Assembly: GCA_035691305.1 (NCBI GenBank)
Contig: DASSJF010000005.1
Span: 11,380 to 75,379 of the forward strand
Reading direction: 5' to 3'
Source of the DNA: a bacterium
GTDB taxonomy: Bacteria; Sysuimicrobiota; Sysuimicrobiia; Sysuimicrobiales; Segetimicrobiaceae
DNA length: 64,000 nt
Positions 17,692 through 38,173 of the stretch are shown here, piece by piece. Under the pieces are notes generated by a model, which saw only the letters and a list, made by a program, of their open reading frames with translations, did no database searches and was not told the origin of the DNA. Position numbers and translations under genes: made by a program. Numbering within the stretch: position 1 is the first letter of the stretch; each line of letters starts with the position of its first letter.

Positions 17692-17825
17692 CAATTTCCT
17701 CCTTGGCGACATTGCGGCATGGCGCCGCGGCATATTATCGTGAGGGTTGTTTGTAACGATTCTTCGCCGGCGCGCGATCCCCGCTCTCCAGACCGTCTGA
17801 ACGGAACGCGCGCCCCGGAATCGCC

Positions 17826-17831
17826 TATAAT
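17826..17831 (+). promoter_or_regulatory. consensus -10 hexamer TATAAT about 30 nt upstream of the ycnI-like start; weak -35
   Basis: CGCCTATAATGAACC, followed by AAGGGGGA SD and ATG at 17862. Lies in a locally AT-richer 170-bp divergent region. Confidence 0.4.
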
Positions 17832-17861
17832 GAACCGGGCGACCGGAGACCAAGGGGGACC

Positions 17862-18497
17862 ATGCGGCAGCACGCACCGGGTTGGGCAATCACGACGGCG
17901 GCCGTCCTTGGGTTGTTGAGCTGGGTAACGATGCCCGCTTTGGCCCACGAGCATCGCACAGCGGGAACCGTCGCCATGACGGTAGGATGGGGCGACGAGC
18001 CCGCGTACACCGGTATGAAGAACACGGTGCAGGTTATCCTCGCCGATAAAGCCGGCAAACCGATCGAGGACGTTACCGACACCCTCAAGGTGGAGGTTCG
18101 CTTCGGATCCCAGCTCAGCGGGCCGCTCGACATCGAGCGCGCCTTCGGGCGGACCTTCGGGCGGCCGGGCGACTACCGGGCGCAGATCGTGCCCACCCGG
18201 CCGGGCACCTATTCGTTCCACTTCACCGGTACGGTGGACAACCAGAAGATCGACGAGACGTTTACATCGTCAGACAAGACGTTCGACGATGTCCGGGAGG
18301 CGACCGCGATCGAGTTCCCCGCCAAAGATCCGTCCACGGCGGACCTCAACGGCTTGGTCCAGCGGCTCGGTCCCCGCGTCGGCGAGGCCGCATCGGCTGC
18401 GGGCCGTGCCGTCACCGTCGGGACAATCGGGCTGATCGCCGGCCTTGTGGGCATCGCCGTCGGCCTGGGCGCGATGCGGCGGAAGCGGCCCGGATAA
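17862..18497 (+). CDS. YcnI-like (DUF1775-like) secreted, C-terminally membrane-anchored putative copper-binding protein
   Basis: 211 aa. Signal peptide ending ALA|HEH gives a mature N-terminal His. A C-terminal TM helix is followed by RRKRPG. First gene of an operon with a CopC-CopD fusion. The fold assignment is inferred from architecture and context, not from strong motif identity. Confidence 0.45.
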   Translation: MRQHAPGWAITTAAVLGLLSWVTMPALAHEHRTAGTVAMTVGWGDEPAYTGMKNTVQVILADKAGKPIEDVTDTLKVEVRFGSQLSGPLDIERAFGRTFGRPGDYRAQIVPTRPGTYSFHFTGTVDNQKIDETFTSSDKTFDDVREATAIEFPAKDPSTADLNGLVQRLGPRVGEAASAAGRAVTVGTIGLIAGLVGIAVGLGAMRRKRPG

Positions 18498-18523
18498 CGG
18501 CGAAGTCGTCGGGCATCGAAACG

Positions 18524-20491
18524 TTGCGGCCCGCGCCATCCGCACTGCACCGCCTGATCGGCGCGCTCCTCAGCCTGCTCGCGGTGACGTTTCTGTCGCA
18601 CCCCGCGTGGGCCCACGCGCTGCTGCGCCAGTCGGACCCCGTGTCCGGGGCAGTGCTGCGGCGGGCCCCCGGCTTTACGACGCTTACGTTCACCGAGGAG
18701 CCTGAACCGGCGCTTTCGACGATCCAGGTCGTCGACGCGAACGGCCGGACGGTCAGCGGCGCACCGGCGACGCCGGTCTCGGGCAACCCTCTGGTCCTCC
18801 GTGTCCCGGTCCACGCGTCGGGCAACGGCGTCTACACGGTGTCGTGGCGGACGGTCTCCAGGGTCGACGGGCACACCACAGGCGGTACCTTTGCGTTCGG
18901 GGTCGGCGTTTCCGCGGCCGCCGCGGTGCTGCCCGCGTCGGCCGGATCCCCGCCCTCCGCCGCCTCGATTGTGTCGCGCTGGGCCTTCTACCTCGGTCTT
19001 TCCGGCATCATGGGTGCGGCGTGGGTCTGGACGATCGCTGCGCCGGCCGCGGCCACGGGCTCCCTGCGATATGTTTGGCTTTCATGCGCGACGGCGCTTC
19101 TCGCGGTCGCCGGGATCGGTCTCGCGCAGGCGCAGGCCGCCGGCACGGGCATCGGCCGGCTGCTCGCCACGTCGCTCGGCACGTCTCTCGCGCTTCGCGC
19201 CGGGCCCATCCTCCTCGCGGGGCTCGCCCTGGCCGCGGCGGCGCCGCGCCCCTCCGCACGACGGTGGGGGCTGGCGGCCGCGGGCGTGTGCGCCGCGGCC
19301 GCCATGCTGGTTCACGTCACCGCGGGACACGCGGGAGCCACCCTCGGTCCGCTCCGGCCCGTGAACATCGCCGTACAGTGGCTGCACTTCGTCGGCATCA
19401 CCGTTTGGCTGGGGGGACTCGCGGCCCTGCTGGCAATAGGGACCCGTGTGCCGGCCGGTCAGGTCGCGGCGGCGGCGCGGCGATTCTCGACGGTCGCGGG
19501 GATCGCCATTCTCTCGGTGGCCGTCACCGGCGCGCTGCGGGCAATCGACAACGTCGGCGCGTGGGACGCCCTCCTCTCGACGGACTACGGACGCCTCATC
19601 GTCGTCAAGGCGGCGCTTCTGCTCAGTCTGGCCGGCCTCGGCTGGGTGAACCGGTACCGCGCGATCCCGCGCCTGCCGGACACGGCCGGTCTGCTCCGAA
19701 AAGTGGCCGCGATGGAACTCGCGGTCGGCGCGGTCGTGCTGTTGCTGACCGGACTGCTCACGGGCCTCGCGCCGGCACGCCAGGCCGCCGAGGCCGCGGC
19801 CGCCGCCCGACCGCTCACGATCACCGGAAACGACTTCGCCACGTCCGTGCGCGTCCGGCTCGAGATCGCGCCCGGTTTTCCGGGCGCCAACCATTTCACC
19901 CTGCGCGCGGCGGACTACGACACCGGGCGGCCCGTCGCGGCGGACCGCGTCAGCCTGAGCTTCCGAAGTGTCGCGCGCCCCGATCTCGGCGTTTCCACCC
20001 TCGACCTGCGCACCGCGGGCGCCGGGGTGTACACTGGCGACGGCGCGAACCTGTCGCTCGGCGGCCCGTGGACCGTCGCCGCACTCCTGCAGCGCGCCGC
20101 GACCGCGGTGGAAGTGCCGCTCGCTGTCACGCCGAAGGCACGGCCCCAGACTATTCGCGAAATTCGTGCGCCGGGCCAGCCGACGCTGTACACCATCGAC
20201 CTCGGGGGAGGCATCGTGCTCAACTCGTACCTCGATCCCGGCCGGCCGGGATTCAACGAAGTGCACGCGACGTTCATCGCGCCGAACGGCGGGGAACTGC
20301 CCGTACCGCAGTCCATTACCATTCTGGCCGCACGCGCGGGCGGCGCGCGGCAGAGCGTGCCGGTGCGGCGGTTCAGCGCCGGACACTTCATTGGAGATGC
20401 GCAGCTCGGCGCGGGCGGGTGGCGGTTCGAGTTCTACGGCACCGCCCAAGACGGAACGGTGCTCGACGCGCAACTCGACGTCACGCTATGA
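18524..20491 (+). CDS. CopC-CopD fusion copper transport protein with C-terminal YtkA-like domain (YcnJ-like)
   Basis: 655 aa. Signal peptide, then HALLRQSDPVSGAVL...VSWRTVSRVDGHTTGGTFAFGVG, a classic CopC cupredoxin domain with N-terminal His. This is followed by about 8 TM helices of CopD type and a soluble C-terminal domain of about 230 aa. Confidence 0.85.
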   Translation: MRPAPSALHRLIGALLSLLAVTFLSHPAWAHALLRQSDPVSGAVLRRAPGFTTLTFTEEPEPALSTIQVVDANGRTVSGAPATPVSGNPLVLRVPVHASGNGVYTVSWRTVSRVDGHTTGGTFAFGVGVSAAAAVLPASAGSPPSAASIVSRWAFYLGLSGIMGAAWVWTIAAPAAATGSLRYVWLSCATALLAVAGIGLAQAQAAGTGIGRLLATSLGTSLALRAGPILLAGLALAAAAPRPSARRWGLAAAGVCAAAAMLVHVTAGHAGATLGPLRPVNIAVQWLHFVGITVWLGGLAALLAIGTRVPAGQVAAAARRFSTVAGIAILSVAVTGALRAIDNVGAWDALLSTDYGRLIVVKAALLLSLAGLGWVNRYRAIPRLPDTAGLLRKVAAMELAVGAVVLLLTGLLTGLAPARQAAEAAAAARPLTITGNDFATSVRVRLEIAPGFPGANHFTLRAADYDTGRPVAADRVSLSFRSVARPDLGVSTLDLRTAGAGVYTGDGANLSLGGPWTVAALLQRAATAVEVPLAVTPKARPQTIREIRAPGQPTLYTIDLGGGIVLNSYLDPGRPGFNEVHATFIAPNGGELPVPQSITILAARAGGARQSVPVRRFSAGHFIGDAQLGAGGWRFEFYGTAQDGTVLDAQLDVTL

Positions 20492-20892
20492 CGCGGGCGA
20501 TACTCGTCCTGGTCGCAATGTTCGTACTGGCGGCCTGCGGGCCGCGCGCGCAGAACGCCCCGTCCGGCCCGTCCTCGCGGCGCCCGCGCTCCACCGCCAC
20601 GCTGTCCATTCTGAAACCGGCGCCGGGCACGACGGTGTCGAGCAGAAAGCTTGAAGTACAACTGCGGCTGACGGGCGCGACCATCACACCGGAAACCTCG
20701 ACCAATCTGAAGCCCGACCGAGGACATATACACCTGATCCTCGACGGCCGCGTCGTGTCGATGACCTACGGCCTCGATCAGGTCGTCCCGGTGACGGCGG
20801 GCGATCATCTGCTGCAGGCCGAGTTCGTAGCGACGGACCACTTTCCGTTCAATCCGCGCGTCGTGACGAGTGCGACGTTCACCGTCAAGTGA
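20488..20892 (+). CDS. lipoprotein of unknown function with GHIHL motif
   Basis: ATG overlaps the copCD stop (ATGA). MTRAILVLVAMFVLAACG lipobox. 134 aa and beta-rich. The track merges it into an alternate-frame 682-aa artefact. Confidence 0.5.
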   Translation: MTRAILVLVAMFVLAACGPRAQNAPSGPSSRRPRSTATLSILKPAPGTTVSSRKLEVQLRLTGATITPETSTNLKPDRGHIHLILDGRVVSMTYGLDQVVPVTAGDHLLQAEFVATDHFPFNPRVVTSATFTVK

Positions 20893-21661
20893 CCCAGTAA
20901 CAGAGAAACGCCGCGGTGCCGCCGTGCGCGCGGCCGCGGGAGCCGCCGCCGCCGGAATCCTCGGCGCCGGGCTGCTGGTCGCCGCCGCGCTGGGCCGGAC
21001 GGGCCCGACCTGGCTGGCACGAGGTCTTTACGATGGCGTCGTGCCGCTCCCGCCGTACCAGTGGGTGCACCCGCCACGCGAACTGGCGCAGGACAATCGC
21101 CCGCCCCAGCCGAGCCGGGCCACCCGCGACCTGGACGCCTCCGGAAAGTCTCCGGGCGCCGTCGCCACCGGCGACGCCCAGTGCACGGTCATCCTTAACG
21201 ACGGGGCACTCGCCGCGGGGCCCTTCGGCCGGACCGTCACCGTGACGATCACCCCGCTCGATCCCGCCTCGATCGGCCCGCCGCCGCCGGGCATGCGGTT
21301 CGACGGGAACGCCTGCCGGTTCGGGGCCGTCTTGGGACAGAGCGGCGCCGTCCCGCAGTTCAAGCGTCCGGTAACGATCGTGCTGCGATACGCCACCGGC
21401 GGCAGCGGGATCGTTCGGGCGTTGCCCGGCGCGGCGCCGGTCTGGCAGCTCACCCGGTCCGTGCAGTACGCGGGCCACCTGCACCTGCTGGTCGGGGACG
21501 TCACGGCGTTGGGAACGTTCGCACCTGTGGCGCCCGCCGGAACTCCCTACGCGCAGAGGACGCCGTGGCTCGCGTACGTGGCCGTCGCGGGGGCGGTTGC
21601 GGTTTTCGTCGGGCTACTCTGGCTGAGGCGAAAACCGCCGCGCCCGGCAGGCGCCGCCTGA
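20870..21661 (+). CDS. uncharacterised Pro-rich two-TM membrane protein (paralog 1)
   Basis: 263 aa. N-terminal TM helix, a Pro-rich extracytoplasmic domain of about 200 aa (PPYQWVHPPRELAQDNRPPQP ... ITPLDPASIGPPPPGMRFDGNACRF ... RPVTIVLRY), then a C-terminal TM helix and a basic tail. The start may instead be GTG at 20924. Confidence 0.5.
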   Translation: MRRSPSSDPVTEKRRGAAVRAAAGAAAAGILGAGLLVAAALGRTGPTWLARGLYDGVVPLPPYQWVHPPRELAQDNRPPQPSRATRDLDASGKSPGAVATGDAQCTVILNDGALAAGPFGRTVTVTITPLDPASIGPPPPGMRFDGNACRFGAVLGQSGAVPQFKRPVTIVLRYATGGSGIVRALPGAAPVWQLTRSVQYAGHLHLLVGDVTALGTFAPVAPAGTPYAQRTPWLAYVAVAGAVAVFVGLLWLRRKPPRPAGAA

Positions 21662-22654
21662 CAGCAGCTGGTCCGCGGTTCCGCCCAGCACCCGCCGTTC
21701 GTCGTCGGGGCTGATGTGCGCCGCCCGCACCTGGTCGGCCGGGCGCTCCACCCCCATGTCAAACGGATAGTCGGAACCCATCACGACGTGATCGGCGCCG
21801 GCGTACTCGACGAGCTGCCGCAAGAGGGTGACGTCGTGCACGATCGTGTCGTAGTAGAACCGTCGCAGCGATTCGTCCGGCGGCATCTCGAGGCGCGCCC
21901 GCGCGGCCGGAACTTCCTCGTATGCGTGGCGGAGACGGCCCCGCAGCGCGAGCACCGCGCCGCCGCCGTGCGCGAGCACGATGCGGAGGCTGGGGAACGA
22001 CTCCAGCAGTCCGCCCATGACGAGGTCGGCCGCCGTGATCGTGGTCTCGAGCGGGTTGCCGACCGCGTTGCCGAGGTGATGGCGGCTGAACGCCGGATTG
22101 TCGAAGCCCCGCGTCGTCGGATGGATGAACACGACCGATCCGAGCGCGGCCGCGGCCTCCCAGAACGGCCGGAAGCGATCGTCGCCGAGGTAAGCGCCGC
22201 GGACGCTCGCGGCGATCTCGACGCCGGCGAGGCCGAGGTTCGCGACGGCTTCCAGCTCGCGGGCGGCCAGCTCGGGGTCCTGCAGCGGCACCGTCCCGAG
22301 CGCCGCGACGCGCCCCGAATGCGCGCGCACGAGCGAGGCGAGCGCGGCGTTCTGGATGCCGCCCGACTCCAACGCGTCGTGCGGGTCTGCGTCGTAGCGC
22401 AGAAGCCCCACGAACGGACAGAGCACCACCCGATCGCTGCCGGCCGCGGCGGTTTCGGCGAGCAGACCCTCCGGGTTCACGAACTCATGGCGGACCGAAC
22501 GGACCTCCACGCCGCCGATCTCGATGCGCTGCCGGTCGCCGTCTCGCGCAACTGTGGGCCGCCACGGCTCCGGGCCGCGGTCGCGCGTGATCTGCGGGAC
22601 GATGATGTGGACGTGCGCGTCGACGACGGGCGCGTCAGTCCGCCGCGCGGTCAT
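21614..22654 (-). CDS. amidohydrolase-2 family protein (ACMSD-like metal-dependent decarboxylase/hydrolase)
   Basis: 346 aa. VDAHVHI, HPTT, LAHGGG and DYPFD metal-ligand motifs of the TIM-barrel amidohydrolase_2 family. Confidence 0.8.
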   Translation of the reverse strand: MTARRTDAPVVDAHVHIIVPQITRDRGPEPWRPTVARDGDRQRIEIGGVEVRSVRHEFVNPEGLLAETAAAGSDRVVLCPFVGLLRYDADPHDALESGGIQNAALASLVRAHSGRVAALGTVPLQDPELAARELEAVANLGLAGVEIAASVRGAYLGDDRFRPFWEAAAALGSVVFIHPTTRGFDNPAFSRHHLGNAVGNPLETTITAADLVMGGLLESFPSLRIVLAHGGGAVLALRGRLRHAYEEVPAARARLEMPPDESLRRFYYDTIVHDVTLLRQLVEYAGADHVVMGSDYPFDMGVERPADQVRAAHISPDDERRVLGGTADQLLSGGACRARRFSPQPE

Positions 22655-24995: not shown

Positions 24996-25538
24996 GTGGT
25001 ATTCCCTTACTCGTTGGACGTCCTCCTACCTCTCGTCGCGGGATTTCTCGGCAGCGCGGCGCTCGCGCTGCGTCCGCCGGCCACCGTCGCCTCGCTTGCG
25101 ATTACCCTCGCGACCGGCGTAATCGGCGGCGCCACACCGGTGCCGCGGGCGCCACGCGGGGACGGCGCGCGGCTGTCGTGGCTCGCCGTGGCGGCAGTCG
25201 GGATCGCGGCCTTCGCCGCGGCCCGCGCGCTGCAGCATCCCCTGGCGCCGAAGATGACGCCGCTCCTCGTCGCCGCGACCGCGGCCGCCGGCGTCGCCGA
25301 AGAATTGCTGTTCCGCCGGCTGCTCTATGGCGCGCTCGCGGTGTACGGCGCCGCGCTCGCCGTCGGCGGATCCGCGGCGGTCTTCGCCGCGGTTCACGTG
25401 CCGGCGTACGGCGTCGCCGCGTTCCCGGTGGATCTCGCGGCCGGCCTCGTCTTCGGATGGCAGCGCTGGGCGTCCGGCACCTGGACGGCCTCGGCCGCCA
25501 CTCATGCCGCCGCAAATCTGATCCAGGCCGCGTGGTGA
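24996..25538 (+). CDS. CPBP family intramembrane metalloprotease (CAAX protease/PrsW-like)
   Basis: About 180 aa. Four TM segments with the EELLFR motif-1 glutamates and the FAAVH motif. GTG 24996 or TTG 25014 start. The upstream part of the 285-aa track ORF is antisense to the dehydrogenase gene. Confidence 0.7.
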   Translation: MVFPYSLDVLLPLVAGFLGSAALALRPPATVASLAITLATGVIGGATPVPRAPRGDGARLSWLAVAAVGIAAFAAARALQHPLAPKMTPLLVAATAAAGVAEELLFRRLLYGALAVYGAALAVGGSAAVFAAVHVPAYGVAAFPVDLAAGLVFGWQRWASGTWTASAATHAAANLIQAAW

Positions 25539-25545
25539 GCGCCCC

Positions 25546-26286
25546 GTGGTAATCATCGGGCGCGCGCGCTTGACGGCCGCGGCGTGGGGAATCGCCGCGG
25601 CCGCCGTGTACCTGGTGGCCGCCCCGCTCGCGTGGCACCACGTCCCGGCGCGGCTGCTCTACGAAGGCGAAGCTCCGCCGGCTCCGTATCACTGGATCGC
25701 CCCGCCGCCCGACCTCGCGCGGGACAACCAGCCGCCGACGGGTGGAACGGGACAGATCGGCCTCAACCCCACCGGCTCCGGATCCGCCTCGATCCTGACC
25801 GACGACGCGCAGGCCGGCATCATCTTCCCGCACGATTCGGTGGCGCCGAGGCCCGGTGTCACCGCCGCAATCGTGCGGATCACGGCGGTCGACCCGGCGA
25901 AGGTCGCGCCGCCGCCCCCCGGCCTCGTCTTCGACGGCAACGCCTACCGCGTGGACGCGGCCTATCAGAATGACGGCGCGATCGTGCTGCGGCGCCCCGT
26001 CACGCCTGTGCTGCGCTATCCCCGGCACGCCACCGTGCTGCTGCGGTGGAGCGACGGGGCGTGGACGGCGCTCGACAGCAAGCGCGTCCCGGCGGCGTTG
26101 CAGATCTTCGCGGCCTCAGACCGCTTGGGGGTGTTCGTGGCGGCCGGCCCGGGGGGCGGCGGGTCATCCCGGGCGGTCTACGCGATCGGGGCGGCGGCCG
26201 CGCTGCTCGCCGCGGCGGCGGTCATCTGGATGATCAGACCGAACCGGCGTAAGGGTACGCGGCGCGGCGACGGTCCGACCGCCTGA
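25546..26286 (+). CDS. uncharacterised Pro-rich two-TM membrane protein (paralog 2)
   Basis: 246 aa. Same architecture and collinear motifs as 20870..21661 (APYHWIAPPPDLARDNQPPTG, ITAVDPAKVAPPPPGLVFDGNAYRV, RPVTPVLRY). Begins 8 nt after the CPBP stop. Confidence 0.5.
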   Translation: MVIIGRARLTAAAWGIAAAAVYLVAAPLAWHHVPARLLYEGEAPPAPYHWIAPPPDLARDNQPPTGGTGQIGLNPTGSGSASILTDDAQAGIIFPHDSVAPRPGVTAAIVRITAVDPAKVAPPPPGLVFDGNAYRVDAAYQNDGAIVLRRPVTPVLRYPRHATVLLRWSDGAWTALDSKRVPAALQIFAASDRLGVFVAAGPGGGGSSRAVYAIGAAAALLAAAAVIWMIRPNRRKGTRRGDGPTA

Positions 26287-33786: not shown

Positions 33787-34512
33787 TTACAGCGCGGGTC
33801 GGACCGGAAACACCTGAAGAATCCAGGCGTTGAGACGGTAGATCCAGTCGAAGAGAAGCGCCGCGCCCATCACGACCAGGAACGCGCCACCCGTGACCTC
33901 GATCGCGTGTGCGTAGCGCCTGATCGCACGGAGCGCGCCGAAAGCTCTCGTGAGCAGCGCGGCGGTGACGAGAAACGGCAGGCCGAGGCCGAGCGAGTAC
34001 GCGAACAGCAGCAGGGCACCGTCGGCCGCGCGCGCCGTCGTCGCCGCGAGCGTCAGGATCGCGCCGAGGACCGGTCCGACGCACGGCGTCCACGCAAACC
34101 CGAACGCCATGCCCACGAGCACGATCCCGGCCAGCCCGGCCGGCCGGGCCGAGAACGCGAAGCGCCGTTCGCGGGAGAGCCCGGGGATCCGCAGCACCCC
34201 CAGCATGACGAGACCGAACAGAATGACGATCGCGCCGCCGATCCGGCCGAGCAGCTCCCGGTTGCCGAGAATGAACCCGCCGGCGAGAGACGCGGACGCC
34301 CCGAGTCCGGTAAACACGAGGGAGAAGCCAAACACGAAGAGCAGCGTCGCCCCGACGACGCGCCAGACGTGCCGTCGCCGTTCGGCCGCCTCGACCTCGA
34401 GCAGCGAGACGCCCGACACGAACGATAGGTAGCCCGGGATGAGCGGCACGATGCACGGCGAGAAGAAGCCGAGCACGCCGGCGGCGAACGCGATCACGAG
34501 CGAGAGATGCAC
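33787..34512 (-). CDS. ccdA: cytochrome c biogenesis thiol-disulfide transporter CcdA (DsbD-beta family)
   Basis: 241 aa. Six TM helices with the two conserved Cys (FFSPCIVPL and WTPCVGPVL). Confidence 0.85.
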   Translation of the reverse strand: MHLSLVIAFAAGVLGFFSPCIVPLIPGYLSFVSGVSLLEVEAAERRRHVWRVVGATLLFVFGFSLVFTGLGASASLAGGFILGNRELLGRIGGAIVILFGLVMLGVLRIPGLSRERRFAFSARPAGLAGIVLVGMAFGFAWTPCVGPVLGAILTLAATTARAADGALLLFAYSLGLGLPFLVTAALLTRAFGALRAIRRYAHAIEVTGGAFLVVMGAALLFDWIYRLNAWILQVFPVRPAL

Positions 34513-35843: not shown

Positions 35844-36358
35844 CCTCATCACCCCTCCGAAGACTACACTCCGGAGACTACAACGGATGCGCAAGGCCAT
35901 TCCTTCCTGTTGAGAGTGCCCAAAAACGTGGCCGGCGGGCGCTCCGGGAGCGCCCGCCGTTAGACCGCCGGGCCTCGTTTCCCCCCGTTACGAGGCCCGG
36001 CCGAACAACGGTCTGCGTCGAGGCAGGTAGCGAAAACTGTTGCTGCGGACGGCGATTCGAAGAAACCCTATGAGCCCGACCGACAGCAGGGCCAACGGGA
36101 CTCCATATGCGATCGTCAACATCAGCCGGTCCGTGCTCCTTAACATCCCAGAGTTGAGTTTACTTGGCCCGGGCGGGAGCAGTAATCGGGCGATGGCCCT
36201 ATTGGGATCCAAAATCGGGTCTCCACCCGATGCCGGCGGGGGCCGGCGGCGGAGGGTCTCCACTTGCTCGCCGGCGTGGGCGATTATTCGGGGATTTGGG
36301 TGGGAATGAAGCGGTTAGAGGGTCACTGAGGCGCGACGGGGGTGGTGGCGAACTGGGC

Positions 36359-38173
36359 ATGCCGGTCCTTATGCTGGATTTCGCCGTAGGCATCCACGTC
36401 GCGATCGTGCTGCTGCTCCTCAGCAAGTACGTCGAGACGAGGTTGCCGTACGTGGTGTGGTGGACCGCCGGGATGGCCGCCCTGGCGGCCCGGTCGGCCA
36501 CCGAACTCACCCTGCTGTCCAACGGAGCGCCCGCGCCCTTCGCCCTCGTCCCGAGCATCCTCATCCTGGCCGGAGCCGGCTGCTTCCTCACCGGCTCCGT
36601 CGCACGGGACCCCAACACGCCCGGCAACATCCTCTTCGGAGCCGTCGGCTACGGCGGACTGCTCACCGCCGTCGCCGCGTTCTTCGTCCTCGGGCGGGGC
36701 CACGCCGACGTCGCGCGCGCGGTCGCCGGCATGGCCGCGGCGCTCGCGTTCGTCCTTGCGGGACGCAGCTATTACCAGGCGGAAGGCGCCGCCGATGACA
36801 CCGCGATTCGGACCATCTTCATCGCGCTCGTCGCGATCGGGGTCAATTTCGCCGGCTGGTCGTTCCTCCCGCGCACGACTTTCGACGCCGGGATCTCGGA
36901 GCTGCTCGGCGCACTGTGCGCGGCGACGTTCGGCGCAGGCGTGCAGCTCCGGTCGCTCGAGCGGCAGCGCGCGCTCGAAGTGATGAGCGCGATCAGCGCC
37001 GCGCTGCACCAGGCGAGCCACGTCGGCGAGATGCTCACAGACGTACTGCGCGCGACCGGCAAGATGGTGCAGGCGCACTCGGGCTGGGTGTTTCTCGAAC
37101 GCGGTGGGCGGTACGAGACCGCCGCGGCGTTTGGGCTGTCGGGACCGCTGGCGGACGGCGGCGGCGCCCTCCGCGACCTGGTCCCCGGCGGAGAACACGG
37201 CCGGTCCGCGCCCGCCGGATCCTGCCGCTGCCTCGAGATGCTGCGCGCCGGCCGGTTGCCGGCGCAGGGCGGCGTCGTGGACTGCGACCGGTTCGCCGAC
37301 GTCGGGGTGGCCCTCCGGCACGCGAGCGTGCCCCTGCGCACCGTGCGGACGCGGGGGGTGCTGAACCTCGTGCTCGTGCCCGGTCGGTTGTTTATGCGGC
37401 GGGAACTGGCGCTCGTGTCCGCGATCGCCACGCAGGTCAGTTTTGCGATCGACAAGGCCGAGCTGCTCGACGAGTTGCGCGACAAGGAGGCGGATCGGAC
37501 GGGGTTGATCCGGCGCCTCCTGAGCGCCCAGGAAGACGAACGCAAGCGCATCGCCCGGGAACTGCACGACGAAGCCGGCCAGTCGCTCGCCGGCCTGATG
37601 CTCGAACTGGAAGCGGCGCGCCTCGAGGACGCCCGCGGCACGGCCGTGACCCAGGAGACGCTCGCGCGCCTCAGGCGCCTCGCGGCGCGCACGGTGGAGT
37701 CCGTGCGGGCGCTGATCTACGACCTCCGGCCGGCCGTCCTCGACGACCTGGGGCTCGTGCCGGCGCTGCGGTGGTACACGCAGAGCCAGATCGCCGCCCG
37801 CGGCCTGGACGTGCGCCTGAGCGAGCGGCTCGGCAGCGAGCGGCTCGACGCGACGCTGGAGACGACGATCTTCCGCATCGCGCAGGAGGCGCTTTGGAAC
37901 GCCGTCAAACACGCCGCCGCGTCCCGCATCGACGTGGACCTCTTGCGAAAGGACGACCGTATCGTGCTTCGCGTGCGCGACGACGGGCGCGGAATCACCG
38001 CGGCGGCCGGCGCCCCGGCGCACCGGGGGCGGGTCGGCGTCGGACTCGGCGGCATGGTGGAGCGGGCCGCGGCCCTCGGCGGCACGGTCCAGGTGGCCGC
38101 GCGGCCGGAGGGCGGCACCGAGGTGCTCGCCGAATTTCCCGCCGCCGCGGTCCGCCGGGGACAAACCGCGTGA
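36359..38173 (+). CDS. sensor histidine kinase (membrane domain - GAF - HisKA_3 - HATPase_c; NarL/LuxR-partner type)
   Basis: Start at the internal MPVLMLD. About 6 TM helices, a GAF-like middle, RIARELHDEAGQSLAGL H-box and a GLGGMVERAAALGG G-box. Confidence 0.85.
   Translation: MPVLMLDFAVGIHVAIVLLLLSKYVETRLPYVVWWTAGMAALAARSATELTLLSNGAPAPFALVPSILILAGAGCFLTGSVARDPNTPGNILFGAVGYGGLLTAVAAFFVLGRGHADVARAVAGMAAALAFVLAGRSYYQAEGAADDTAIRTIFIALVAIGVNFAGWSFLPRTTFDAGISELLGALCAATFGAGVQLRSLERQRALEVMSAISAALHQASHVGEMLTDVLRATGKMVQAHSGWVFLERGGRYETAAAFGLSGPLADGGGALRDLVPGGEHGRSAPAGSCRCLEMLRAGRLPAQGGVVDCDRFADVGVALRHASVPLRTVRTRGVLNLVLVPGRLFMRRELALVSAIATQVSFAIDKAELLDELRDKEADRTGLIRRLLSAQEDERKRIARELHDEAGQSLAGLMLELEAARLEDARGTAVTQETLARLRRLAARTVESVRALIYDLRPAVLDDLGLVPALRWYTQSQIAARGLDVRLSERLGSERLDATLETTIFRIAQEALWNAVKHAAASRIDVDLLRKDDRIVLRVRDDGRGITAAAGAPAHRGRVGVGLGGMVERAAALGGTVQVAARPEGGTEVLAEFPAAAVRRGQTA

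Follow-up and report, generated by a model that had tools for sequence, protein, structure and literature searches.

The 64,000-nucleotide (nt) stretch of contig DASSJF010000005.1 (assembly GCA_035691305.1) that was analysed as a whole, here called the window, belongs to an uncultured, high-GC soil bacterium and includes four consecutive plus-strand genes, named genes 1 to 4 (Table 1). Gene 2 encodes a fusion of the copper proteins CopC and CopD, gene 1 a small protein with a C-terminal membrane anchor, gene 3 a lipoprotein, and gene 4 a protein with two transmembrane (TM) helices. A sequence-only reading had taken the four as one translationally coupled copper-acquisition operon. Our analysis supports this role for genes 1 and 2, makes it plausible for gene 3, and finds it weak for gene 4. 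The four open reading frames (ORFs) are present, and their GC content at third codon positions (GC3) is 0.81-0.87, versus 0.52-0.65 or 0.61-0.75, depending on the gene, at the third positions of the shifted frames. As a third-position excess of this kind is expected in a genome with a GC content of 70%, genes 1 to 4 can be considered real and coding.

The CopC-CopD fusion and its upstream partner

The product of gene 2 consists of a signal peptide (cleavage site AWA/H31), a CopC domain (residues 31-127), a CopD domain (approximately 146-417) and a C-terminal extracytoplasmic region (431-655) of about 225 amino acids with two beta-sandwich-like halves. Its description as CopC fused to CopD holds: both Pfam thresholds are passed (CopC, PF04234, 67.7 bits against a cutoff of 23.3; CopD, PF05425, 69.5 bits against 32.1), and the AWA/H site and the motif WRTVSRVDGH (residues 108-117) are present. 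NCBIfam models also identified CopC and CopD, both under the equivalog thresholds. In alignments, H31 coincides with residue 1 of three solved CopC chains, 5icu, 9c14 (the CopC domain of YcnJ) and 6tpb, and D115-G-H117 with the D-x-H of the same chains and of 6nfq. H31, D115 and H117 are conserved in 50-51 of 52 orthologues taken from genome loci, and H269, H288, W295 and E398 of the CopD domain in all 52. The ligands of the Cu(II) histidine brace, H31, D115 and H117, are thus intact. The C-terminal region had been proposed to be a YtkA domain, completing the architecture of YcnJ. This is supported through the orthologues, at the level of the family only: 18 of 25 orthologous C-terminal domains match YtkA (PF13115; best E value 1.1e-10) and FixH (best 4.8e-8), and the profile built from these domains matches Helicobacter pylori CrdA (E 0.0015), while the window copy has no YtkA match of its own at E≤0.1.

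Gene 1 codes for a protein with a signal peptide (ALA/H29), an extracytoplasmic beta-sandwich (residues 29-140, approximately), a linker, and a C-terminal TM segment (184-202) followed by RRKRPG. The cleavage site ALA/HEH and the terminal segment with its basic tail agree with the YcnI layout that had been assigned to it, and removal of the signal peptide would expose an N-terminal His. The family includes at least 816 homologues at E≤1e-3; those listed are all unnamed or annotated as "hypothetical protein", have no Pfam domain, and derive from metagenomes or metagenome-assembled genomes (MAGs). A signal-peptidase site of the form AxA/H is found in 117 of the 120 homologues listed; of the remaining three, one is truncated at the N terminus and two have a His behind a site of AxA type. 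This residue, His1 of the mature protein, is also kept in the full-length distant loci shown, where the N termini read H-V-T, H-L-H or H-I-T. Other conserved features of the family are the motif G-W-x-x-E-P, in which W43, E46 and P47 are invariant, and a C-terminal hydrophobic helix followed by basic residues.

The sequence-only reading had proposed profile searches and structure prediction as checks on the YcnI assignment, and both gave a negative answer. The window protein belongs to no Pfam or NCBIfam family, PF07987 (DUF1775) is matched neither by it nor by 41 relatives even at E≤10, and the solved YcnI structure is absent among the structural matches listed. Membership in DUF1775 was rejected on the basis of the missing Pfam and NCBIfam matches. 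The predicted beta-sandwich is closest to DUF4426, CrdA, P19 and CopC. Searches of the PDB by sequence, using the single protein and the profile, returned nothing meaningful, comparing the profiles of the gene 1 and gene 3 families with each other revealed no relationship, and a comparison of gene 1 with the C-terminal region of gene 2 gave a weak hint on which we do not rely.

A scan with the gene 1 profile, using one genome per species, identified 61 loci, all of them in MAGs, from Actinomycetota (including Acidimicrobiia and Solirubrobacterales), Chloroflexota, Bacillota, Armatimonadota, Dormiibacterota, Vicinamibacteria, ANGP1 and unclassified lineages. In 55 of the 59 loci with room for it (93%), the next gene downstream of gene 1, on the same strand, encodes CopC; in 47 of 51 it encodes a complete CopC-CopD-C-terminal protein. 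The linkage spans Actinomycetota, Chloroflexota, Bacillota, Armatimonadota, Dormiibacterota and the unclassified ANGP1 lineage, and the same arrangement was found when homologues were looked up individually. For DUF1775 proteins of the YcnI cluster, the share with a CopCD gene as a neighbour is about 40% (PMC8424229), a comparison that supports a far tighter coupling between gene 1 and CopC. Since it lies directly upstream of CopC in 55 of 59 species-level loci, gene 1, a member of an uncatalogued family outside DUF1775, is an analogue of YcnI; among small copper-associated beta-sandwiches it is, if anything, nearer to the YtkA/CrdA type.

In close relatives the cluster is preceded by genes for a HisKA_3 histidine kinase and a LuxR/GerE response regulator, as in locus L001 (2046-7963) and also in L011, L071, L075 and L087. 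Farther upstream in these loci there is a second copper set consisting of a CopC (159 amino acids), a 476-amino-acid protein with no Pfam domain, a CopD-YtkA protein (461 amino acids) and another CopC (256 amino acids). The window has neither the two-component system nor the second set, and therefore its regulation must differ from that of the relatives. A different metal-uptake context for the same family is found in L006 (5287-8520), where the gene 1 homologue adjoins a Fur-family regulator and a divergent ZnuA/ABC-3 metal importer and is followed by a stand-alone 258-amino-acid CopC with no CopD.

The DUF4399 lipoprotein and the gene 4 family

Gene 3 had been described as encoding a 134-amino-acid lipoprotein with a GHIHL motif, and both the lipobox (LAAC, C17) and the motif are in place. 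The window copy scores 23.7 bits against DUF4399 (PF14347), below the 28-bit gathering threshold; all 32 aligned relatives match PF14347 at E≤0.01 (best 4.4e-7), and many homologues have a precomputed DUF4399 assignment. C17, H80, H107, H118, D86, D117, E112, M92 and Y94 are invariant and H82 is nearly so. Gene 3 can be regarded, from these alignments, as a divergent branch of DUF4399 lipoproteins with four conserved His residues. It is present in 22 of 50 gene 1-anchored loci, in 18 of them directly after the CopCD gene, and in most of the others it lies divergently upstream on the opposite strand. A PDB search with the single sequence and the profile found no solved relative, and a full-text literature search found no functional study of DUF4399.

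Gene 4 specifies an N-terminal TM helix, a conserved Pro-rich segment (LYDGxxPLPPYQWVHPP...DNRPP), a predicted ZU5/GAIN-B-like beta-sandwich and a C-terminal TM helix. Its characterization as a two-TM, Pro-rich protein was correct: hydrophobic helices are found at both ends, Pro accounts for 11% of the residues, and nine Pro occur in the 45 residues after the first helix. A PDB search with the single sequence gave nothing meaningful. A word-indexed search identified 40 close relatives, and an exhaustive profile search identified 1,166 clusters at 50% identity (300 at E≤1e-30) in a family that has no Pfam model. Nearly all members listed are 200-320 amino acids long and have the same TM-domain-TM layout. 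This family, called here g4/g4b, includes a second window gene, g4b (Table 1), whose product has the layout of gene 4 with no Cys pair and represents the widespread branch of the family. The g4-like genes of distant loci score higher against g4b than against gene 4, and true gene 4 was found only in the clade of the window. Given the paralogy, the family search and these scores, gene 4 is a clade-specific duplicate of g4b.

Invariant positions in the family are Y63, W65, P68, P69, N76, T100, D102, Q104, G146, N147, W192 and G215. Because no His, Cys or Met is conserved among 141 members, a direct metal role for gene 4 is unlikely. Only the gene 4 clade has the pair C105/C149 (numbering of the 263-amino-acid ORF); in most members of the family, position 149 is Tyr.

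The predicted fold of gene 4 is a beta-sandwich of the GAIN-B type. Microbial GAIN-like domains, named "MAIN", cleave themselves at an HX(S/T) motif (bioRxiv 10.64898/2026.05.12.724683). At the position of the GAIN turn motif gene 4 has A-L-G-T and g4b has R-L-G-V, with a family consensus of (R/E/A)-L-G-(T/V/Y); none of the 141 members has a His at position -2, the +1 residue is T, V or Y, and HX(S/T) is thus not found. Autoproteolysis of gene 4, considered for its GAIN/ZU5 fold and for the strand LGTFAPV, which resembles the GAIN sequence HL/TxFAV, was rejected since neither the His nor the nucleophile is conserved. Besides lacking the HX(S/T) motif, gene 4 and g4b differ from ZU5, the GAIN-B of adhesion G protein-coupled receptors and microbial MAIN domains in having an extra N-terminal TM helix and no GAIN-A helical subdomain. 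They also have no large adhesion or enzymatic passenger domain, as the family members, of 230-290 amino acids, consist of TM, domain and TM only.

The tightest partners of the g4/g4b family are a CPBP protease and DUF4399. When the g4 family was used as the anchor in metagenome contigs, a trio recurred in the order DUF4399, CPBP protease, g4b, at times with a Peripla_BP_6 gene inserted. The trio adjoins a CopCD fusion in L071, L073, L075, L086, L087 and L094, with gene 1 in front in L071, L073, L075 and L087, and the same combination of trio and CopCD is found in the gene 1-anchored loci L016, L028, L029, L037, L040, L048, L049 and L052. In the window, gene 4 directly follows the DUF4399 gene, and the CPBP-g4b pair, in which g4b comes 8 nt after the CPBP gene, lies 3.3 kb downstream beyond three minus-strand genes. 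DUF4399 is hence the bridge between the gene 1/CopCD pair and the CPBP/g4b pair. A lack of co-occurrence of genes 3 and 4 with copCD, named beforehand as what would speak against a single operon, was not seen, since the co-occurrence is present across phyla; for gene 4 the distant relatives are g4b-like, and the trio is also found without copCD in its flank.

The CPBP-g4b pair, usually after DUF4399, recurs in many phyla. Loci from Actinomycetota have a Peripla_BP_6 gene after CPBP (L040, 5726-6982; L052, 3898-5226; L007, 7669-8306), located in L040 and L052 between CPBP and g4b. Some loci have two copies of the g4b family (L100, 6303-7540; L088 and L095), either in tandem or flanking DUF4399-CPBP, and duplication within this family, as in the window, is therefore recurrent.

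Probable copper acquisition and competing readings

We consider that genes 1 and 2 probably constitute a high-affinity copper-acquisition pair of the YcnI/YcnJ type, with gene 3 as an accessory and gene 4 as a member of an envelope module, and give this reading a probability of about 0.65. The comparison of genomes establishes that the ligands are conserved and that genes 1 and 2 are linked; the chemistry, and the direction in which copper is transported, we infer from the work on Bacillus (PMC8424229, PMC12362106, PMC13344008). There, the YtkA domains of CtaK and YcnJ have been proposed to deliver copper to cuproenzymes of the membrane; the Cu(II) ligands of YcnI are His27, Glu50 and Trp137 (PMC8424229), YcnI and the CopC domain of YcnJ exchange Cu(II) (PMC12362106), and the CopC, CopD and YtkA domains of YcnJ each have a demonstrated role (PMC13344008).

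By analogy, the gene 1 protein would be exported and lose its signal peptide, leaving His29 as residue 1 of a protein tethered outside the membrane by its C-terminal helix. The N-terminal amine and imidazole, probably together with Glu46 and with Trp43 close by, would hold one Cu(II). The CopC domain of gene 2 would bind Cu(II) in its histidine brace and exchange it with gene 1, and CopD would move copper across the membrane by means of the invariant H269 and H288. The YtkA/FixH-like C-terminal part may hand copper to membrane cuproenzymes. The gene 3 lipoprotein, with its four His and its Asp, Glu and Met residues, is most likely an additional extracytoplasmic metal-binding accessory. Gene 4 would be a copy, specific to this lineage, of a ZU5/GAIN-B-like surface protein with two TM helices, for which the CPBP protease and DUF4399 are the natural partners; it probably binds no metal, and more likely belongs to an envelope module that is associated with a protease and often located beside the copper importer.

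The system has both similarities to and differences from those already known. Gene 2 shares with YcnJ of the Bacillus subtilis ycnKJI operon the three-part architecture (the YtkA part at the level of the family), the ligands of the Cu(II) histidine brace and the conserved CopD histidines, H269 and H288 being putative counterparts of YcnJ H295; it differs from YcnJ in the size of its C-terminal region, apparently two domains. Gene 1 shares with B. subtilis YcnI the signal peptide, the mature N-terminal His, the beta-sandwich, the C-terminal TM anchor and the adjoining CopCD gene (PMC8424229, PMC12362106, PMC13344008). Apart from the family and the listed structural neighbours, it differs in its invariant Trp and Glu, which follow His1 by 14 and 17 residues; in YcnI the residues used are Glu50 and Trp137 (PMC8424229). 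The order is also different, partner then transporter here and ycnK-J-I in B. subtilis, and there is no YcnK-type repressor at this locus, the relatives having the HisKA_3/LuxR system instead. As to CrdA, the H. pylori copper resistance determinant, and the YtkA/FixH-like family that includes CtaK, only two of 41 gene 1 family members give a YtkA match, which is marginal (E 0.11), and gene 1 is anchored by a C-terminal TM segment, not secreted or lipid-anchored. Gene 3 agrees with DUF4399 through its relatives and differs as a divergent lipoprotein branch with a sub-threshold window copy. The Escherichia coli yobA-yebZ-yebY (AZY) and Pseudomonas CopC/CopD systems are likewise copper-uptake units of CopC and CopD with a small accessory periplasmic protein (PMC11923076; PMC13344008). 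Going by their descriptions, they differ in consisting of separate polypeptides in a Gram-negative periplasm with no fused YtkA-like domain, and counterparts of genes 1, 3 and 4 are not described for them.

Several observations weigh against the copper-acquisition reading. The failure of the window copy of gene 2 to reach any YtkA threshold, and the lack of detectable sequence similarity of gene 1 to DUF1775 and of a listed structural match to YcnI, have been given above. In addition, Glu30 of gene 1 is kept in closer relatives only and not in distant members; the gene 1 model has a pLDDT of 71, and residues 46-51, beside the proposed site, are below 50; its structural neighbours P19, Tp34 and HftA are iron/copper proteins, which leaves the metal unproven; every relative is a MAG; the flanks examined include no copper enzyme, Sco, PCuAC or copper regulator; and the DUF4399-CPBP-g4b trio has no CopC or CopD within its 4-5 kb upstream flank in L088, L095, L098 and L100.

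This last observation is among those that would be expected if two independent modules had come to lie together, genes 1 and 2 being a copper importer and genes 3 and 4, with CPBP and g4b, a separate non-copper envelope module that is merely often adjacent. We regard this as a serious possibility, with odds clearly below even. The repetition of the trio, the lack of conserved His, Cys or Met in the g4 family, the confinement of true gene 4 to the clade of the window and, in L001, a distance of about 600 nt from the gene 3 homologue to that of gene 4 all point in its direction. It accounts less well for gene 3, whose His cluster is typical of a metal site and which overlaps gene 2 in ATGA; in 18 loci spread over several phyla, DUF4399 comes directly after the CopCD fusion, the junctions often being short or overlapping, and it does so also where no CPBP gene was detected (e.g., L014, L018, L042 and L061).

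An unlikely alternative is that the cluster serves not import but copper tolerance by surface sequestration or buffering, for which gene 1, gene 3 and the CopC domain would provide sinks for Cu(II) outside the cytoplasm. CopC and CopD were first described in a resistance operon, and CrdA, the closest structural match of known role, is a resistance determinant; YcnI itself has been proposed to sequester Cu(II) from YcnJ, limiting its entry (PMC12362106). On the other hand, the transmembrane His residues of CopD are invariant, and such residues are required for uptake in YcnJ and YebZ (PMC13344008). The cluster and the flanks examined include no multicopper oxidase, P-type ATPase or CopB-type gene. 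Moreover, the CopC domain has kept the ligands of the Cu(II) site, and CopC proteins of this type are not known to have the Met-rich Cu(I) site of those involved in resistance. Least probable of all, and favoured by the Fur-family regulator and ZnuABC-type transporter next to the L006 homologue, is that gene 1 is a P19/FtrA-like or other protein for a metal such as iron, its link to CopCD reflecting a mixed-metal uptake system: its identity to P19-type proteins is 9-12%, none of 41 members matches the Pfam P19 model, its invariant mature N-terminal His is a hallmark of Cu(II) histidine-brace sites, and its invariable neighbour is a CopC with Cu(II) ligands.

The type of operon is already known. 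What is new is an uncatalogued partner family that replaces DUF1775 and is linked to CopCD in a near-obligate manner, together with a first hint, from genomic context, at what DUF4399 does, a large and so far unannotated family of membrane proteins with a predicted ZU5/GAIN-B-like domain paired with CPBP proteases, and a corrected start for gene 4. Copper import in bacteria is far less understood than export, and the hand-off of Cu(II) between YcnI and YcnJ has been described only in 2021-2026, for one organism. A second partner family, unrelated in sequence and present beside CopC in 93% of the loci and in several phyla, would indicate that a tethered protein with an N-terminal His acting together with CopC is a general design, which may have been reached twice, and it offers a concrete ligand set for testing (His1, Trp and Glu). 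DUF4399, which has no published function, would be tied to a metal pathway, and the ZU5/GAIN-B-like family bears on the recent discovery that microbes have GAIN-like domains. A more far-reaching interpretation, which we put forward tentatively and would not favour as a whole, is that gene 1 defines a new membrane-tethered Cu(II) family of DUF1775-independent origin that fills the role of YcnI in uncultured Terrabacteria, whose CopCD importers would have it as a near-obligate partner, with a YtkA/CrdA-like beta-sandwich and a His1-Trp15-Glu18 site (mature numbering), and that DUF4399, CPBP and the ZU5/GAIN-B-like two-TM protein make up a new envelope module with a functional coupling to copper acquisition. 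Such an interpretation would provide the first functions for DUF4399 and for the unannotated family of approximately 1,166 clusters.

Gene starts, upstream region and surroundings

Table 1. Positions in the window of genes 1 to 4, the CPBP-g4b pair and features upstream of gene 1
Feature	Positions	Strand	Remarks
Gene 1	17862-18497	+	211-amino-acid ORF
Gene 2	18524-20491	+	655-amino-acid ORF, TTG start
Gene 3	20488-20892	+	134-amino-acid ORF
Gene 4	20924-21661	+	Probable GTG start, 245 amino acids; longest ORF 20870-21661, 263 amino acids
CPBP (Rce1-like) intramembrane protease gene	24996-25538	+	Pfam Rce1-like, E 1.5e-13; start set by comparison with L004
g4b, paralogue of gene 4	25546-26286	+	38% identity over 168 amino acids, E 2e-29
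TATAAT hexamer upstream of gene 1	17826-17831	+	Read from the sequence
Shine-Dalgarno-like sequence AAGGGGGA	17852-17859	+	Ends 2 nt before the ATG of gene 1

Genes 1 and 2 are separated by 26 nt and genes 2 and 3 overlap in ATGA, as originally described. The 23-nt overlap of genes 3 and 4 rests on the choice of the longest ORF. The 54-nt 5' extension that precedes the GTG at 20924 has a GC3 of 0.44, versus 0.87 for the remainder of gene 4; the homologue P0121 (98% identical) is called from the matching GTG; and N-terminal extensions are not conserved among the homologues. For these reasons gene 4 probably starts at this GTG and is separated from gene 3 by a gap of 31 nt, with which the proposed translational coupling of genes 3 and 4 does not hold.

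The upstream region was said to be AT-rich and to carry a consensus TATAAT. It is AT-richer, though mildly so (GC 0.65 versus about 0.71), and the hexamer is present; a consensus scan upstream of gene 1 found no sigma-70 -35/-10 pair, and TATAAT is not conserved in an alignment with relatives, where only the Shine-Dalgarno sequence (A/G)GGGGGA and the ATG are. The former is common to L004, L011, L071 and L087. A promoter reading of the hexamer is not supported. Just before the hexamer there is a 12-nt inverted repeat (17769-17780 and 17803-17814; GGCGCGCGATCC and GGAACGCGCGCC; 92% complementary, 22-nt spacer), which could be an operator or a product of chance.

The genes that flank the cluster in the window belong to ordinary metabolism; they include those for an MBL-fold hydrolase, an Amidohydro_2 protein and an M24 peptidase, along with several dehydrogenase genes. 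A search of the ORFs between 183 and 44585, limited to those passing a coding filter based on GC3 and on GC content at second codon positions (GC2), turned up no other copper gene. The 3' end of gene 4 overlaps the convergent Amidohydro_2 ORF (21614-22654, minus strand) by 48 nt (21614-21661), and the equivalent overlap in L001 is 4 nt. Farther away, in the range of 12-17 kb downstream of the copper cluster, are genes for a thiol-disulfide membrane protein of the DsbD_TM/CcdA type (33787-34512, minus strand) and for a 669-amino-acid HisKA_3 histidine kinase (36164-38173, plus strand).

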